NCBI GenBank assembly: GCA_964560085.1
Contig: CAZLKF010000004.1
Span: forward strand, 15,554 to 79,553
Length of the DNA: 64,000 nucleotides
Source: an uncultured Muribaculaceae bacterium
GTDB taxonomy: Bacteria > Bacillota_I > Bacilli_A > RF39 > UBA660
Direction of reading: 5' to 3'
Part shown: piece after piece, positions 51,001 through 57,000 of the stretch
Layout: each line of letters starts with the position of its first letter
Position numbering within the stretch: the first letter of the stretch is position 1
Made by a program: the position numbers

Positions 51001-54000
51001 ATAATATGGCAAGAAAAACTTTAGCAGATTTTAATTATAATTATCAGGCTTATGCAGATTATTTGGAATCACCTGAATGTGCAAATGATGAAGGGTATGA
51101 TACTTATGGTGATGCTAACGGCAACATTTATGAATCAGATGATTGGACAAAAGGTCATGGTCATCGAAATACCAACAATAACTATAATCGTGACAAAGAC
51201 GATGATAAAAGTAAAGGCAGAAGTTGGAAAAATCCTTGGTTAAAATATGCAGACAAATTAAATTTAACACCGGAAGAAATACAAATGTTAGATGCATTAT
51301 ATAACTATCAACAAGCAAATAAAAATATAGAAGTACAAGAAGTAGAAAACTATTCAAAAAAAAGATAAAATGAAACATAATGAAGTAAAGTAAAAATGAT
51401 TTGTATGGAAAATGTATTAAGATTGATTTACAATAAAACAGTTAAAAATGAAGTTCTAAATTTAAAAGATATAGAACAAATTTTAGAACTATTGATAGTT
51501 AATAAGGACTTGAACAAATACATTTTAAATATAGATGTTCAACCAATAAGAAGCAATAATCTTGCTTCTTATTCTAGCTATACAAAAAATATAACCATAT
51601 ATGCAGAAATGATCAAAAAAATGATTGAAGATATAGAGATGAATATTTTAAATGCTAATGAATTTGAAGTAATGTTATATAAGAATTTATCTATCTTGCA
51701 AATTTTATTGCATGAAACTGAACATGCAAATCAACAAAAGATAGCAGATAACGATAATAATTTAGAAGCTTTTATTATCAGATTATCATATTTAGTTGAT
51801 AATGCTTATGAAGATGAAATTTACGAATATTGCCCAGAAGAAAAATTGGCTGAAGTTAAATCTTTTGAAGAAATAATAGATTTAATGAAATACTTAGAAA
51901 AAGAATCGATTAGATTACCAGAAATATTTGATATAGAAAGATTAAACAGATTATTAAGAGGGTATCATTACATTGACTCTCACTTAAACATCCCACTTGA
52001 AACATATTTTACGATGGCCAAAAGACAAGATCTATTTTGTTATGTTGATTTGAGTCTTAATCTATCTAGTACTAATTTCAATGCTTCTCTTACTAAATAT
52101 AAACTACAAGAAAGGCTAAGATATGGATTTCCAATATCGGAGTTGGAGTATGGAACATCTATGAGAAAACTAGTTTTATCTTTAAATAGAAATTTTAAAA
52201 ATAAAACTAATGTTAGATTAAAATAAGAAATGTGATATACTAATCATAGTTAGGAGTGATTTTAATGAAAATATCCTTAAAAGACTTACAATATAATCGT
52301 AAAGGCGAGAAATATGAAGACGGGTATAGAGTTGTTTATTTTACAGAAAATAATTATCATGTAGGTGAATATTGTAAAACAATTGAAGGATTTATGATAG
52401 GTTTTGCCGAAAATGATCCTATTATTGATGAAGATGATATTCCTCCATTTGTTTCAATAGATGATTTGTTAGATAGGTATCTGGATGCTTTAAAAGACAA
52501 AACATCAGTAGCTTTATATAAAACTGATGGGACATGTGTGGCTTCAAAAAAAAGAAGTGATACAAAAACCCGTTAATAATAGTCTAATGTATGTTTGATT
52601 ATTAAGATACCAAAAAAGGTATCTTTTTTATTTAAAAAGAACGATAGACATATTTAAAATAGCAAATTATGTTGTGTAATATAATTAATAAAAAAATTAT
52701 ATAGATAAAGCATACAAAAGAATGTTTATTGTGAATAAATGAGATTTGTACATGAATATCAATTAAATTATTAAAATATTTGAACCATTGTATAGATTAA
52801 ATAAAGTTTTTGTCAGAATAAACTTAGAAGAATTTGCTTCTGTAAGAAACTTGAAATTAATTGATTCTTCTCAAAAGAAAAAATTATGAGAGATAATATT
52901 AAAATATTGTTTTGAATATGTAAATTTGACTACTTAACATATATTTGTTAAAATTAGTGTGAGGAGGGTATGTTATGACAATAATTAACGAATCTGACAA
53001 AAATATTGCAGAAGAAATGTTCACTAGTACAACTGTTAATAGTTGCGAAACTGATGGCGCTTCTTGTGGTTGTGGGAACTAAAAAGTAAACTTCAAAAGT
53101 TTACTTTTTAGTTTATTTTTTGATAGGAGGTTTTTACATGTATCATAAATCACAATATAATTATATTTATAAAAAAAGTAAAAATTTATGGGTTATTTAT
53201 AATACTTTTAGCGGAGCAATATTGACGATAGACGATAGTAAAAAGAAAGATTTTGATTTATTGGATGATTATAAAATAGAGAGTAATTCTCATTTTATTG
53301 AACAACTTATAAAACAGGGAATATTAATAGAAAATAATTTTGATGAGAAATTAATGATAGATGCCAGCAGAGCAAGGAGAACGTATGGGGAAAAGTCTGC
53401 TTATTTAAGAATATTAACCACAACTGCATGTAATGCTAGATGTGAATACTGCTATGAAAAAGACTTCAAAAAAATTACAATGAGCGAAAAAACTGCTAAA
53501 AATGTTATAAAATATATAAATAATTTGCCAAAGATGGAAAAATTTTATATTCATTGGTTTGGTGGAGAACCACTATTAAATACTAAAGTGATTGATCAAA
53601 TAATGAATGCCACATATGACAGATTAATCAAAAATGGTACCAAAGTGTTTGTATATTTTACATCTAATGGCTCATTATTGGATAAAGAAATGGTAAAGAA
53701 AGCAAAGAATATTTGGCATGCAACATATTTTCAAATAACTATAGACGATTTATATGAAAAATATGATAATATTAAAAATTATGTAAACAAAAAATATAAC
53801 TATAATAGAGTTATAGAAAATATACTCTTTTTATTAGAAGAGAATATACAAGTAATATTGAGAATGAATTATTATCCAAATGAGGTGCTTAAAATTAAGA
53901 GAATTGTCGATGAACTATCTCTCAAATTTTCAAAATATGTAGAATCTAGTCTTATTATGTTTGATCCAGCTCCAATTTTTGAGACAAATTCAACATCATG

Positions 54001-57000
54001 TTCAAACTGTAATAGAGTTTATAATATGAATGAACCGGCGAAATATTTGATAGAAAAGAAATTAGCTAAAGAAGAGGATGCCTTAAATTTAAAATTTAAA
54101 GGTGGTCAATGCTATGCTTGTCATCAAGGTAGTTTTGTTGTCTCTCCCCAAGGTGACTTATATAAATGTACAGTAACAATGAATGATAAAAATGCAAAAG
54201 TAGGGAATGTAGTAATGGGAATTGAAAGAAATAGATATTATTATAAATGGGTAAATCCAAAATTACCAAAAAAATGTGATAAATGTATTTTTTTACCTTT
54301 ATGTCAAGGTGGCTGCCGAGCTGGAGAATTAGGTTATTTAAGTATTTTTTGCAAAAGAAATTTATCCGAAGTAAAAGAAATAATAAATTATAAAGTAGAT
54401 AAAGCATTTAGAAATTCTATTAAACTAATTGAATTGAAAGATTATATAAATAATGATTTATATCAGATGTATCAAGATATACCTCCACAAGAAACAGGCT
54501 CAACAAATAAATTATTCGGAGTAACTTTTGATGAATTTAAATTAATCTGTGAAAATATGATTAAAGAAGAGACTGTCATTAATGAAGATATAAATACTAC
54601 AACAAAAAGATTTATATTATTAGTTAATTCCAATCCAATAGGTGAAGTTGGAATTAGAACAACTCAAAATGATTTTTGGGTAAATAGAGGAAGTCAAATA
54701 TACTATAAAATTAAAAAATCAGAACGTGGAAAAGGTTATGGAAATATTATTTTAAAGTTAGCGTTAGAAAAAGCAAAAGAAATGAACTTTAATCAGATAA
54801 GAATAAATTGTGATAACAATAATATTCCTTCCAAGAAGGTGATAATTAAAAATGGTGGAAAAATAGATATAGCAGATTACAAAACAAAAGATGGTTATAG
54901 TTCAAGTTATATAATAGGTATAAATGAAAAATAAAGAATTATTTTTAAATCAATTATATAATGATATTTCAAATATAAAAAATATCAAAATAAATATTTA
55001 TATTGAAGAGATAAAGGAAAATCAATTAGAATATTATTATTTTAATAGAATAGTACACAAATATAATGAACATTTTGGTGTTAGAATAGATATGGAATTT
55101 TCTGAAAACTCATATTCTGAAAGCTTTGATTTTGTTAATTATAATGAAGCAAAAAACAGAATATATATATTTATAAATAAATACGTTGATTATCAATCGT
55201 TAACTTTAAAACCCAAAAAAATCATGTTTAAAAGAATTAAAAAGAAATATAGATTTTTATCCAATTCGAAAAAATATCAAATTTGTGAAAATGTAAAGAG
55301 AAAAATAAACTATGCTCATGATTTTAAATTATCATTTTACGAAAAAAAAGAAAATCTCTTTATATTAAATAATCAAAAAGAATTCATATTTAATATAAAA
55401 AATTTTTATTCAAAGATAATGTTGCATACTATATATAATGGAGTGAAATCTTTTGATCAAATGCTTTTCAATAGAGGCTACACAAACTTGAACGCAACTA
55501 AAATAAATGATTTTATAGAAAAATATAATTATAATAATTTTATAAAGCATAATAGTAAACCATTAGTGGATGGTAACTATGATTTAATTTTTTCTAATAA
55601 ATGTGGAACTGTTTTTCACGAAATGTTCGGTCATAATTTAGAGCATGATTTAATTGACTCATTAGACAAAAAAATTTTTATAAAAGGAAGTAACATAGGG
55701 AACAAATTAATAACATATATTGATGATCCGAAATTTTTAAATTTATTGAATGTTTCTTATAACTGTTATGGCGATAATCGTAATAAAAAAGTATTAATAA
55801 AAGATGGCACAGTAATAGATTTTCTTATTAATGATTCTCTGAGAAGTGAAAATTATAAATATCATCCGACAAGTAGAATGTCAAACACTTATTTAAAGCC
55901 AATTAAAAATTTTAGTAAATTAGACATAGATAAATTAAAAAAAGTAATTTATATAAAAAAAATTAAGAATGGTAGATTATATCTAGAAAAGCAAAAATTT
56001 AAAATTGAAATTGATTGTGCTATTCTTTATGAAAATGGGAAGGTGACTTCATACATATCTAATATATCTTTTATTGTAGATGTATTTGATTTTATATCTA
56101 AAATCAAATACATAGGAGATGATTTAGATTTTGTTCCAACAGTTTGTGGGGCAAAAAGCGGTAATATTTTTGTATTTGCAGGTTGTCCAACGACATTTGT
56201 AACTGATATTAATATAATACAAAATAATTAGCATATCTATATAGAAAATAAGATTATATCTATAAGTTATTAACAATTTTGAATAGAATAAAATATAGAT
56301 TATTTTAAACGAGGTTGTTAATTAATTTTTCAACCAAGATATATAATAAAAAATATTATTCAGAATTCAGAGCCAATAAAAGTTGGTTCTTTTTTGTGTT
56401 ATGCTTATATAAAGTGAAATATCTTTATAAAAAACGGACTTCAAGTTCTCTAATTCCTTGAAAAATAAGGTTAATTCAGAATCAGTACATGCGATATTTA
56501 AAATATATTATAATAAAAGAAAGGAGTGATAAATATGCTAAACAGCAAAGAAATTTATAGAAAGGAGGATTTTTATGGAAAAGATACTTTTGTTTGGTGA
56601 AAAAATTTGTAATATGGAAGGTAGTACAATAGATGTTATTAAAAGTTTAACAAAACATGATTTCTTTATATATTCTGTTGCAATAGATAATAATAGAAGA
56701 GAGATTTATACAATTGTTGCTCGAATAATGTTCTATAAATTTCATGGTCTTAGAGATTCAACATCAGAAGATGTATTGAACTTTTTAGTTTCACATAATA
56801 ATATAAACATTGATACTCAAGAATATAAGGATATTGTCAAGTGTTTGGACTATTTAACAATATGTTTTCCCAAAAAATATTGTTATCTTTATAATGCTGA
56901 AACTGCTAAAAAACATTACTTGTTTGAAAAAAGTTCATGGGTATTATCATTATTTATGTTTGTTGATAATTTGATGAAAGAATACTTGTTAGTTGGTCAT

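Follow-up and report, generated by a model that had tools for sequence, protein, structure and literature searches.

The locus analysed here, in a 64,000-nucleotide stretch of bacterial DNA (the window), raises the question of what a GNAT acetyltransferase does at the C-terminus of a radical-SAM/SPASM peptide maturase. The original prediction, made from the window alone, was that one polypeptide could both crosslink and N-acetylate its own peptide, and it named a sequencing error that split off the GNAT as the finding that would remove the fusion.

The fusion is a genuine gene and is under purifying selection. About 19 protein clusters at 62-85% identity share an uninterrupted frame of 595-599 aa across the junction, nine independently assembled loci from different studies keep the frame between SPASM and GNAT, and a 97.5-kb contig present in NCBI and Logan encodes exactly the protein of the window. 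The dN/dS values were 0.175 for the RRE-like domain, 0.15 for radical SAM, 0.10 for SPASM and 0.17 for the GNAT (dS ~1.1), the linker helix being the most variable segment of the fusion (0.27). Since the GNAT value is like that of the radical-SAM part and the frame is kept in the ~19 clusters and nine loci, the fusion is no sequencing artefact. The idea that a missed stop codon or frameshift joined two separate genes in the assembly is hardly credible, since the frame recurs in at least nine independent assemblies, the identical protein is in two collections and purifying selection spans the junction; the split by sequencing error was thus not borne out. The expectation that such a protein is rare also held: the whole family falls into a single cluster at 50% identity, out of 1.84 billion representatives, its members all come from MAGs or metagenomes, none was found in the plasmid and phage records searched, and the searchable literature contained no mention of an rSAM/SPASM-GNAT fusion.

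The features of the operon are collected in Table 1. The domain search confirmed the predicted Radical_SAM, SPASM and Acetyltransf_1 matches, all above their curated cut-offs: Pfam Radical_SAM at aa 93-257 (72.1 bits against 29.5; 8e-20), SPASM at aa 327-397 (44.7 bits against 27), Acetyltransf_3 at aa 492-574 (32.4 against 25.4) and Acetyltransf_1 (26.2 against 20.7). All 19 homologues have the three barrel cysteines, and the ten SPASM cysteines (288, 291, 325, 328, 344, 380, 383, 389, 393 and 405) are kept in 18-19 of the 19. AlphaFold modelled the whole chain with a pLDDT of 95.4 and a pTM of 0.87, and the GNAT as a complete fold of 170 aa (pLDDT 95) whose top structural neighbours include RimL, RimJ and MccE. 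The acetyl-CoA motif A (R-x-x-G-x-G) is RGKGYGNIILKLALEKAKE at aa 530-548 (nt 54725-54781), with the core RGKGYG at aa 530-535, in which R530, G533, Y534 and G535 are invariant among 19 fused homologues. A C-terminal GNAT with this motif was therefore correctly predicted; its extent was not, as the ~140 aa first assigned are in fact ~190 aa made up of the linker helix, which the model places at 409-426, and the 170-aa GNAT. The N-terminal segment, singled out earlier for lying where RiPP recognition elements sit, is modelled as an RRE-like fold with strands at 2-4, 8-14, 17-22 and 27-31 and helices at 33-40, 52-59 and 70-83 (pLDDT >95). RRE-bearing CteB aligns with the fusion protein over its full length, including these 85 aa (474 columns), and leader binding by this domain is putative.

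Table 1. Features of the fusion gene and its operon, in window coordinates.
Feature	Position	Strand	Details
Terminator-like hairpin of upstream gene	52604..52625	+	8-bp stem + T-run; 5' operon boundary
Promoter-like site	52926..52954	+	TTGACT-17-TAAAAT, TG extended -10; 10/12 consensus matches
Precursor peptide gene, 35 aa	52975..53082	+	MTIINESDKNIAEEMFTSTTVNSCETDGASCGCGN; RBS GAGGAGGG; conserved in related loci
18-bp hairpin + T-tract	53076..53114	+	overlaps precursor stop codon
Fusion gene, single unbroken ORF	53138..54934	+	598 aa counted from ATG; start candidates ATG 53138 (preceded by AGGAGG ribosome-binding site) or TTG 53120; stop codon 54932-54934
RRE-like domain (putative leader recognition)	53138..53392	+	aa 1-85; AlphaFold fold, CteB 5WGG alignment
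Radical-SAM barrel	53393..53992	+	aa 86-285; CX3CX2C at C98/C102/C105; PF04055
SPASM auxiliary Fe-S domain	53993..54361	+	aa 286-408; TIGR04085
Linker helix (fusion junction, SPASM to GNAT)	54362..54421	+	aa 409-428
GNAT domain, complete, RimL/RimJ/MccE type	54422..54934	+	aa 429-598 plus stop codon
TldD-type metallopeptidase gene, 435 aa	54924..56231	+	PF19289, 3e-20
Terminator-like hairpin ending operon	56369..56390	+	9-bp stem + T-run

The fusion gene sits at the centre of a compact, mobile three-gene RiPP operon comprising precursor, fusion and TldD-type protease. The flanking precursor and protease genes, which had been missed at first reading, strengthen the RiPP interpretation. The host of the operon is a gut bacterium. 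A terminator scan returned four sites where 0.5 would be expected in this region. The promoter-like site lies ~20 nt before the precursor RBS and was recognised by its consensus alone; such sites are not enriched in this AT-rich region. The precursor, present in single copy within the window, has a leader beginning M-[TIV]-[IV]-[IV]-N-E and a core [SG]CExD[GA]ASCGxG[ND] with two invariant cysteines (C24 and C31); at each of the 14 related loci examined, a homologous ORF of 33-35 aa immediately precedes the maturase gene. In these same 14 loci a hairpin with T-tract occupies the position equivalent to that over the precursor stop codon, with stem sequences that differ in the distant ones, and it is probably a partial terminator (attenuator) setting the precursor-to-enzyme transcript ratio.

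The 11-nt overlap of the fusion and TldD-type genes suggests translational coupling. The TldD-type protein keeps HEMFGH (HExxxH) and a C-terminal Cys ligand in register with E. coli TldD (5NJ5), to which it is ~25-30% similar in the C-terminal half only; its NCBIfam TldD score is 58 against a cut-off of 635, and its predicted activity could be deacetylase-like. No TldE partner gene lies near it, and in being the single such gene of its cluster it resembles BipI of biphenomycin, a BGC-encoded "self-sufficient" TldD-type RiPP protease (PMC12707348). The gene follows the fusion in the window and at L003, L004, L011, L021, L023, L026 and L027, and is absent from the fused loci L001 and L024. Neither the GNAT-less maturases (L005, L006, L008) nor the loci where maturase and GNAT are split (L007, L009) had such a gene alongside, so that among the loci examined it occurs only beside fused, GNAT-bearing versions.

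With regard to the maturase itself, the best NCBIfam matches are the RiPP thioether-type maturases TIGR04463, CefB, geopeptide maturase and PapB, at scores far below cut-off (TIGR04463 162 against 525, PapB 126 against 340, SCIFF 66 against 425), and CteB is the best match in both sequence and fold at ~20% identity. The protein shares with CteB/SCIFF-type and PapB-type (sacti/ranthipeptide) enzymes an N-terminal RRE (here RRE-like), a CX3CX2C barrel and a SPASM domain carrying two auxiliary clusters, and in both cases a short precursor containing Cys is encoded just ahead of the maturase. Unlike in those systems, a GNAT follows at the C-terminus, and the precursor has only two conserved cysteines and belongs to no named family. 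The core here has C-x2/3-D and C-x3-N/D spacing, similar to the CX3D motifs on which PapB acts. To our knowledge, Elp3, the catalytic subunit of Elongator, is the sole well-known protein joining radical SAM to a C-terminal GNAT/KAT in one chain. The likeness is one of architecture only, since Elp3, a universally conserved modifier of the tRNA wobble uridine, has neither RRE nor SPASM, and the fusion matched no Elp3-specific Pfam or NCBIfam model.

Distant relatives point to a classic gene fusion, as a separate orthologous GNAT gene lies just downstream of an unfused maturase, at a distance of 12-100 nt, in L007 and L009 (12 nt from stop to start in the latter). Shared contigs imply two further split pairs. 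The split pairs have 46-55% maturase identity, and their stand-alone GNATs are basal in a neighbour-joining GNAT tree computed without support values. From these sequence comparisons, the GNAT appears to have started as a separate gene adjoining the maturase and to have been fused in one narrow clade. The close relative L005 (P0020, 68% identity) has kept precursor and maturase and lost both GNAT and TldD, its unfused protein terminating at the linker-helix position. An independent fusion of reverse order (GNAT::rSAM/SPASM) occurs at L029, where the GNAT is a paralogue of 35% identity, the rSAM/SPASM enzyme is a different one and a Cys/Asp-rich 48-aa ORF lies alongside.

The acetyltransferase is found mostly without its maturase. 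In a GNAT-seeded census of 22 members at least 50% identical, five proved to be fused and the other 17 lacked a related maturase within 5 kb; two of those 17 lie near a different, unrelated radical-SAM gene, hence 15-17 of 22. Orphans were verified in L014, L015/16 and L020, although many of the "stand-alone" matches that lie on short contigs may represent pieces of fused genes. Their accessory-gene contexts are varied, NUDIX and metallophosphoesterase genes recurring at ~10% of loci each, and the most basal GNATs are in non-RiPP contexts. The GNAT also survives deletion of precursor and maturase, as in the deletion fossil P0164, where precursor(15-27) is joined in frame to maturase(393-598), and in P0183, where precursor(1-9) is joined to maturase(400-598); in L017-19 the GNAT ORF persists even though TldD has been truncated as well. 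Since P0164 is one recent allele, on 14 contigs, it is alone no proof of selection for the GNAT. Members of the family are also fused to an APH kinase (P0249) and to a reverse transcriptase. That the purpose of the GNAT is to tailor the product of the same enzyme by N-acetylation is therefore not established and is in part contradicted.

We tentatively favour a role in self-protection or resistance like that of MccE over simple N-acetyl tailoring. MccE likewise has a RimL-type GNAT at the C-terminus of a RiPP biosynthetic enzyme, and free-standing homologues (RimL) protect non-producers. Its N-terminal partner is a PLP-dependent decarboxylase and not an rSAM enzyme as here, its substrate is an aminoacyl-nucleotide, sequence identity is only ~13%, and no toxic species is known for the present peptide. 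The MccE GNAT, fused to a biosynthetic enzyme, detoxifies processed microcin C, and in at least one microcin C-like system, that of Yersinia, the product is activated by TldD/E within the producer (PMC10885120). The prevalence of orphans, the deletions, the non-RiPP contexts and the APH and RT fusions fit a free-standing module of MccE type that protects or detoxifies at least as well as they fit tailoring. The weak best family matches of the GNAT, all resistance acetyltransferases (Sat2, Sat4 and ArsN1), also speak for such a role. Against self-protection, the operon contains no exporter or other immunity gene, and related peptides of the SCIFF and ranthipeptide types have been linked to signalling. 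If immunity depended on the GNAT, its loss in L005 would be hard to explain, unless the activity were supplied in trans by an orphan copy. The recurrence of NUDIX and metallophosphoesterase genes beside orphan GNATs further hints that the family acts on something other than a peptide, of a nucleotide-like kind.

It is possible, though less favoured, that the GNAT instead caps the new N-terminus of the crosslinked core, for example to block aminopeptidases, and that the fusion couples consecutive biosynthetic steps. In GodH, the microviridin enzyme MdnD, lasso-peptide acetyltransferases and selidamide acyltransferases, a RiPP-cluster GNAT modifies an amine of the peptide while maturation proceeds or once it is complete, but does so as a separate protein unfused to the class-defining enzyme, and we know of no such tailoring GNAT that is found mostly as an orphan. 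Most characterised RiPP-cluster GNATs are tailoring enzymes, including goadsporin GodH (PMC5303826), the microviridin acetyltransferase (PMC13039773) and the RiPP N-acyltransferases (PMC8784127). Maturase and GNAT have long been linked and co-diverging, as the split pairs attest, L029 repeats the association, and the co-encoded TldD-type protease would yield a free alpha-amine. However, where precursor and maturase have been lost, such an enzyme would be left without a substrate, and yet most close GNATs have no related maturase nearby, several of them deriving from fused genes by in-frame deletion, and the basal non-RiPP contexts and the APH and RT partners also argue against capping. Furthermore, while the leader is attached, possibly tethered by the RRE, the sole free alpha-amine is the leader's own.

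A shared substrate may also be absent altogether, the GNAT being a general detoxification or housekeeping enzyme for a small molecule, nucleotide or antibiotic that shared a mobile cassette with the RiPP genes and was neutrally fused by stop-codon loss. This is unlikely, even though the family is mostly orphan in varied contexts, with the NUDIX and metallophosphoesterase neighbours already noted, and its weak best matches, as noted, are acetyltransferases for resistance to streptothricin and arsinothricin, together with PDB 3pp9. The APH::GNAT fusion resembles bifunctional AAC/APH resistance enzymes, although the order in P0249 is APH then GNAT, and the fused GNAT matched no aminoglycoside-specific model. 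One ancestral cassette could have given both split and fused arrangements, and with a gap of only 12 nt in L009 a small mutation would easily fuse the genes. Against this, the link to the maturase has persisted while the sequences diverged deeply (46-85% identity), the fused frame has survived to dS ~1.1, and the model shows a confident, compact arrangement of two modules. The independent fusion at L029, of opposite order and with a different enzyme, argues that this GNAT type has a functional affinity for peptide-modifying rSAM enzymes.

Less probable still is that the GNAT, by acetylation, keeps the peptide or an intermediate inert in the producer and that the TldD-family protein is, at least in part, an N-deacetylase or activating hydrolase. 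The TldD/TldE family is described as containing N-deacetylases besides peptidases (Vobruba et al. 2022, via PMC10885120), the two genes are translationally coupled neighbours at most fused loci, and the TldD-like gene was found only with fused versions. However, the peptidase-type HExxxH and Cys ligands are kept, and sequence alone cannot separate peptidase from deacetylase; fused loci without TldD exist, and a cytoplasmic deacetylase encoded by the producer would reverse the protection if the two activities were not kept apart spatially or temporally.

For the MccE-like role that we favour, we propose that the RRE-like domain would bind the beta-strand-prone leader (M-T/I/V-I-I/V-N-E) and that the rSAM/SPASM part would make one or two intramolecular thioether rings from C24 and C31 to nearby acceptors in C-E-x-D...C-G-x-G-N/D, by resemblance to CteB and PapB-type enzymes. 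On the precedent of TldD/E and BipI, the co-translated protease would then trim the leader from the N-terminus until the crosslinked core blocks further trimming. The GNAT would acetylate the alpha-amine so exposed; since one GNAT-associated relative has a precursor without Lys, the side chain of Lys cannot be the target in general, and any peptide acetylation would have to occur at the alpha-amine. As in MccE, this acetylation would serve self-protection or resistance, and since the acetyltransferase usually occurs without the crosslinking enzyme, it looks more like a protective than a decorating module.

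The open reading frame at window positions 53138-54934 (+) encodes a single chain of 598 aa whose ATG lies downstream of an AGGAGG ribosome-binding site; an alternative in-frame TTG start upstream, at 53120, was judged less likely. The original prediction of an rSAM-SPASM maturase carrying a C-terminal GNAT in one polypeptide is borne out by this single ORF, by its Pfam and NCBIfam domains and by AlphaFold. The three domains it named, Radical_SAM, SPASM and Acetyltransf_1, were all found above cut-off: Radical_SAM (PF04055) at aa 93-257 with 72.1 bits against a Pfam cut-off of 29.5, SPASM (TIGR04085) at aa 327-397 with 44.7 bits against an NCBIfam cut-off of 27, and Acetyltransf_1 together with Acetyltransf_3 (aa 492-574, 32.4 bits) above the Pfam gathering thresholds. 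The CX3CX2C motif (C98/C102/C105), in this superfamily the site of the SAM-cleaving [4Fe-4S] cluster, is invariant in 19/19 homologues, and ten further Cys between aa 288 and 405, in the Cys-rich region that in SPASM enzymes serves two auxiliary [4Fe-4S] clusters, are kept in 18-19 of the 19. In the AlphaFold model of the whole chain (pLDDT 95.4, pTM 0.87; alignment of 114 sequences) a strand/helix unit at aa 1-85 is followed by the rSAM barrel (pLDDT > 95), SPASM, a helix at aa 409-426 and a GNAT fold at aa 428-594. With Foldseek, the first ~430 residues aligned to CteB (5WGG; E 2e-17, 474 columns) and the C-terminal part to RimJ. The C-terminus combines the GNAT fold with the acetyl-CoA motif A of that superfamily (Q/R-x-x-G-x-G/A), motif A being the RGKGYG string at aa 530-535, which lies within the acetyl-CoA-binding string first quoted. 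The chain after SPASM, initially put at about 140 aa, is actually about 190 aa long and holds the whole GNAT domain. The N-terminal segment that had been placed in the RRE position corresponds to the aa 1-85 unit, which in the model aligns with RRE-bearing CteB; with a precursor ORF adjacent, this is the arrangement of a RiPP maturase with an N-terminal PqqD-like RRE, in which leader binding is putative.

Among known systems, the RRE-rSAM-SPASM part is closest to CteB, an RRE-containing thioether synthase. Scores against the named thioether-maturase equivalogs lay below the NCBIfam cut-offs (TIGR04463, 162 versus 525; CefB NF038107, 140 versus 600), as did those for the geopeptide (TIGR04280, 136 versus 400), PapB (NF047865, 126 versus 340) and SCIFF (TIGR03974, 66 versus 425) equivalogs. 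Judged by these sequence models, the maturase part resembles the named thioether-maturase families and is a member of none. Close structural neighbours of the GNAT were a lasso-peptide acetyltransferase (15.3), PseH (15.3), MccE (15.3) and AAC(6') (~14.6), and its sequence-model matches to the Sat2 and Sat4 streptothricin acetyltransferases and to ArsN1 were weak. Among the ribosomal-protein acetyltransferase equivalogs, RimI gave 14.6 bits against a cut-off of 86.4, and the RimJ and RimL models were unmatched by the GNAT. The GNAT is RimL/MccE-like in fold only and belongs to no curated family. MccE, a microcin C protein, is the nearest conceptual precedent, with a RiPP biosynthetic enzyme and a GNAT in one chain; what the fusion has in common with it, known here from genes and model, is that a RimL-like GNAT follows the pathway's own biosynthetic enzyme at the C-terminus. 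The other mark of MccE-type self-immunity, acetylation that inactivates the toxic processed product, is for the fusion a putative role, with indirect support from the orphan GNATs and deletion fossils described below. To our knowledge, Elp3 is the only familiar rSAM-GNAT fusion. Elp3, conserved as subunit 3 of Elongator, is composed of rSAM, Radical_SAM_C and KAT domains, whereas the rSAM part of the present protein is of the RRE and SPASM type; the two differ in kind of domain and in function, and the Pfam and NCBIfam matches of the present protein included no model specific to Elp3.

A search of 5.8 billion clustered proteins returned 19 clusters of 595-599 aa with 62-85% identity and 100% coverage, and in fused-gene DNA from nine different assemblies the frame was intact in all. 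The sequencing error near the junction that had been thought possible, or a frameshift there, is therefore ruled out, since the same frame is kept in 19 clusters and at least nine loci with purifying selection across it. The dN/dS per domain was 0.175 for the RRE, 0.150 for rSAM, 0.101 for SPASM, 0.27 for the linker and 0.173 for the GNAT (dS ~1.1). Since the GNAT value is comparable to that of the core, the GNAT is constrained as strongly as the catalytic core. The expected rarity of the fusion was also confirmed. When 1.84 billion 50%-identity representatives were searched exhaustively by HMM, a single one, P0012 (1189 bits), stood for the entire fused family, and the next-best matches were unfused 425-aa maturases (542 bits). 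Plasmid and phage records held no full-length match, the searchable literature no description of an rSAM/SPASM-GNAT maturase fusion, and no source names the protein. Across 185,579 species-representative genomes, close relatives were confined to three loci, all in MAGs, two with intact fused genes and one decayed; the decayed gene, from an Oscillospiraceae MAG (L012 5001-6164), retains a 284-aa ORF matching residues 194-595.

The fusion is thus real, rare and conserved, and it is the central member of a RiPP cassette of three genes, new and uncharacterised, in uncultured gut Bacilli (see table). A homologous 33-35-aa ORF lies directly upstream of the maturase gene in 14/14 related loci examined. 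The precursor leader is conserved as an N-terminal M-[TIV]-[IV]-[IV]-N-E and the core as a C-terminal [SG]-C-E-x-D-[GA]-A-S-C-G-x-G-[ND], in which the only invariant Cys are two and the conserved Asp, Asn and Gly are acceptor candidates. The core of a distant relative (L006) reads C-Q-N-G-D-S-S-C-G-I-G-D, that is, two CX3D units. All 14 loci have a hairpin at the position of the window's, although in the distant loci its stem differs entirely in sequence, and the one in the window would fit the transcriptional attenuators that are common between RiPP precursor and enzyme genes. In the TldD-type protein an HEMFGH (HExxxH) motif and a C-terminal Cys (VCG) line up with the residues that bind metal in E. 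coli TldD; against the NCBIfam TldD equivalogs the protein scores far under the cut-offs. Canonical TldD (M103) is a heterodimer with TldE/PmbA, whereas the window's gene is encoded singly, with no TldE-like second gene in the operon; in this it is like BipI, a cluster-encoded "self-sufficient" TldD-type protease (PMC12707348). Just upstream of the cassette, a 276-aa ORF (51396-52226, +) with an HExxH-like string, LLHETEHANQ, matched neither a Pfam nor an NCBIfam model, and at other loci the cassette has no conserved counterpart of it alongside. Elsewhere in the window, 44 kb from the cassette, there is a C39-peptidase-domain ABC transporter of the bacteriocin-exporter type (7012-9147, +), near which a quick scan of 5.7-11 kb found no obvious double-glycine peptide gene, and two more ABC exporter genes lie at 29855-33926.

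Features of the cassette and of NUDIX genes beside related GNAT genes; positions are those of the window unless a compared locus (L number) is given
Feature	Position	Strand	Description
Precursor gene	52975-53082	+	35-aa ORF MTIINESDKNIAEEMFTSTTVNSCETDGASCGCGN; strong RBS; directly upstream of fusion gene
Hairpin and T-tract	53076-53114	+	18-bp stem; overlaps precursor stop codon
TldD-type gene	3' of fusion gene, 11-nt overlap	+	435 aa; PF19289, 3e-20, 72.7 against cut-off of 22
Terminator-like hairpin	52604	+	flanks the operon
Terminator-like hairpin	56369	+	flanks the operon
NUDIX gene	L009 2504-3022		directly beside GNAT
NUDIX gene	L015 4544-4990		directly beside GNAT
NUDIX gene	L029 4088-4579		directly beside GNAT
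NUDIX gene	L051 5525-6085		directly beside GNAT
NUDIX gene	L036 219-656		directly beside GNAT

In different genomes the cassette sits in differing chromosomal neighbourhoods. At one locus (L003 4851-10308) it has been inserted, along with a large serine recombinase gene and a 39-aa ORF, into a P-type cation-ATPase gene, which is thereby split (293-aa N-fragment and 574-aa C-fragment), and in three others (L017/L018/L019 3939-10026) a (decayed) cassette, 39-aa ORF and serine recombinase likewise lie inside the split ATPase gene. It thus seems that a small integrative element carries the RiPP cassette as cargo. A phage or plasmid origin of the window itself was ruled out by the lack of megablast matches together with chromosomal housekeeping genes (GyrA/ParC-like, GltX, SMC); the window, of ~26% GC, is chromosomal and the cassette appears to be mobile. 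Downstream of the cassette, the stretch at 56575-63673 (+) resembles a genomic island and includes a 224-aa ORF, a PcfJ-like gene (57461-58984), a DnaB_C/AAA-like gene (59148-60071), a stand-alone Acetyltransf_3 GNAT (60127-60699, +; 96 bits) and a NERD nuclease-domain gene (61794-62507). This second GNAT, 4 kb downstream of the cassette, has weak PseH/RimJ-like matches and is of a different family from the fused one. The hosts are placed by MAG labels ("uncultured Bacilli bacterium"). A 19-kb low-GC contig with an intact cassette (L004/L010) is labelled "Bacteroidaceae bacterium", in conflict with the Bacilli labels of the other close relatives, and this label may be a binning error.

In the related loci L007 and L009 the maturase (46-55% identity) is unfused, and 12-100 nt downstream of its gene comes a stand-alone gene for a GNAT of 166-176 aa, which matches residues 427-598 of the fusion over its entire length; P0024/P0221 and P0027/P0213, each pair on a shared contig, point to two further split pairs. 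A neighbour-joining tree built from 126 GNAT domains, without support values, has the maturase-adjacent GNATs in basal positions and the fused forms in a crown clade. The split pairs and the basal position therefore indicate that the fusion is a secondary joining of neighbouring genes in one narrow lineage.

A search with the GNAT domain only found ~120 stand-alone homologues (41-76% identity), and an unbiased census of metagenome contigs, seeded with the GNAT, yielded 80 loci; together with context look-ups, the census ruled out that the GNAT is exclusive to this RiPP system. In the subset with at least 50% identity and at least 1.5 kb of upstream sequence, 5 loci were fused (precursor in 5/5, TldD gene in 4/5) and 17, screened with the window's rSAM as probe, were without a related maturase; on re-screening, 2 of these 17 orphans (L029 and L051) proved to lie near different, unrelated radical-SAM genes. 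All more distant census members with enough flank to judge were without a related maturase. Orphan settings include a position flanked by the genes of a Der-like GTPase and of an AMP-binding enzyme (L014), an element that also encodes Fic, MazEF and NUDIX proteins (L015/16) and, for the most basal clade (L020), unrelated accessory genes. Several "stand-alone" GNAT proteins are, by their sequences, evidently molecular fossils of fused genes: P0164 is an in-frame join of precursor residues 15-27 to maturase residues 393-598, P0183 one of precursor residues 1-9 to maturase residues 400-598, and P0125 and P0217 retain traces of the maturase N-terminus. In the loci encoding P0164 (L017-19), the TldD gene is cut to 101 aa and the GNAT ORF is intact. 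The reverse loss is seen in L005, where precursor and maturase (68% identity) are retained and the GNAT and TldD genes are absent.

Members of the GNAT family are also found joined to other partners. P0249 (427 aa) carries one at the C-terminus of an APH-family phosphotransferase, a layout like that of bifunctional antibiotic-resistance enzymes, and in P0368 (554 aa) one follows a reverse transcriptase (RVT_1) C-terminally. A 521-aa protein of a further locus (L029 3512-6517; ERZ773139 NODE-6603) has an N-terminal Acetyltransf_3 GNAT followed by a Radical_SAM/SPASM-like part; its GNAT is 35% identical to the window's, its domain order is reversed and its rSAM enzyme is different. This second fusion is independent of the window's. 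Its gene is directly followed by a 48-aa Cys/Asp-rich ORF, MTALDVILNKYRGTEIESELTVGIKNLESINDCNCVDCGDSADCSTPW, and next to it lie an orphan GNAT belonging to the window's family and a NUDIX gene. No universal partner gene of the orphans was found, NUDIX and metallophosphoesterase genes each occurring in ~10% of loci with enough flank. In a syntenic subgroup (L035, L037, L039, L040, L041 and L043) a metallophosphoesterase lies upstream of the GNAT in place of the NUDIX gene, and in L051 the GNAT sits with a viperin-like radical-SAM gene and one resembling nucleotidyltransferases. These contexts are a hint that some family members have a nucleotide-related substrate. Near another orphan, a 321-aa GNAT::NUDIX fusion (L094 6608-7570; Acetyltransf_7/1) involves a different GNAT family.

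RimL, RimJ and MccE are all acetylators of alpha-amines. Acetylation of a Lys side chain of the precursor as a general mechanism was ruled out, since Lys is absent from the L009 precursor and is not conserved across the others. Any acetylation of the peptide would therefore fall on an alpha-amine, and the only useful one is that freed by leader removal. We propose that the RRE-like domain would bind the precursor leader and that one or more thioether rings would be formed from C24 and C31; the Cys sulfur may be bound to C-alpha, as in sactipeptides, or to C-beta/gamma, as in ranthipeptides. Plausible options are, by analogy, both sactionines to Gly, for which StsB is a precedent (PMC10288494), and Cys-to-Asp links like those of PapB. 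The TldD-type protein may then trim the leader up to the cross-linked core as a "pencil-sharpener", for which there is precedent in TldD (PMC10885120), and the GNAT would N-alpha-acetylate the amine so exposed.

As to the role of this acetylation, the structural claim of the original prediction stands, and its tailoring scheme, cross-linking and then N-acetylation, becomes one of two comparably supported readings. The other, which we tentatively prefer at somewhat below even chances, is that acetylation serves self-protection or resistance following the logic of MccE. Self-protection best accounts for the orphan majority, the GNAT-only deletion fossils, the APH fusion and the mobile context, and the fossils lend it support since they are the pattern expected of producers decaying into resistant non-producers. 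Pure tailoring, in which the GNAT acetylates as a maturation step, is rather unlikely, and slightly less likely than self-protection: it is the commonest role among RiPP-cluster GNATs and would account for the long-term maturase-GNAT linkage and for the second, reverse-order fusion, but it leaves the orphan GNATs unexplained. Those orphans would be expected if the GNAT were an unrelated detoxifying enzyme hitch-hiking on the cassette, an explanation that we consider decidedly improbable as it fails to explain the persistent linkage and the independent second fusion. That the GNAT is paired with the TldD-family protein to protect and deprotect is very unlikely; it is considered because the TldD family includes N-deacetylases (PMC10885120). 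A bolder proposal, to which we give an outside chance, is that the GNAT and the co-translated TldD-family protein form an acetyl switch for a thioether peptide, in which the GNAT would N-acetylate the trimmed peptide and keep it harmless in the producer, the TldD-family hydrolase would control activation, and the orphan GNATs of uncultured gut Bacilli would confer resistance against neighbours' peptides.

While rSAM/SPASM RiPP maturases and GNATs are each well known, neither the searchable literature nor annotated plasmid and phage records yielded a covalent fusion of the class-defining cross-linker with an acetyltransferase, and this fusion defines an entirely uncharacterised, unnamed RiPP family of uncultured low-GC gut Bacilli. 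The operon is small and tractable (~3.5 kb, three genes, a 35-aa precursor) and suits heterologous reconstitution. Since the evolutionary series is unusually complete, with split pairs, a fused gene, orphan GNATs and in-frame deletion fossils, the question of tailoring versus immunity for RiPP-cluster GNATs becomes directly testable. If the GNAT is a tailoring enzyme, the fusion would be a one-polypeptide cross-link-and-cap catalyst of use in peptide engineering. If it is protective, acetylation immunity of the MccE type would be extended to thioether peptides and a widespread gut resistance gene family would have been identified; an acetyl protect/deprotect switch, if true, would mean that immunity or pro-drug logic based on acetylation had been described for the first time in a radical-SAM RiPP.
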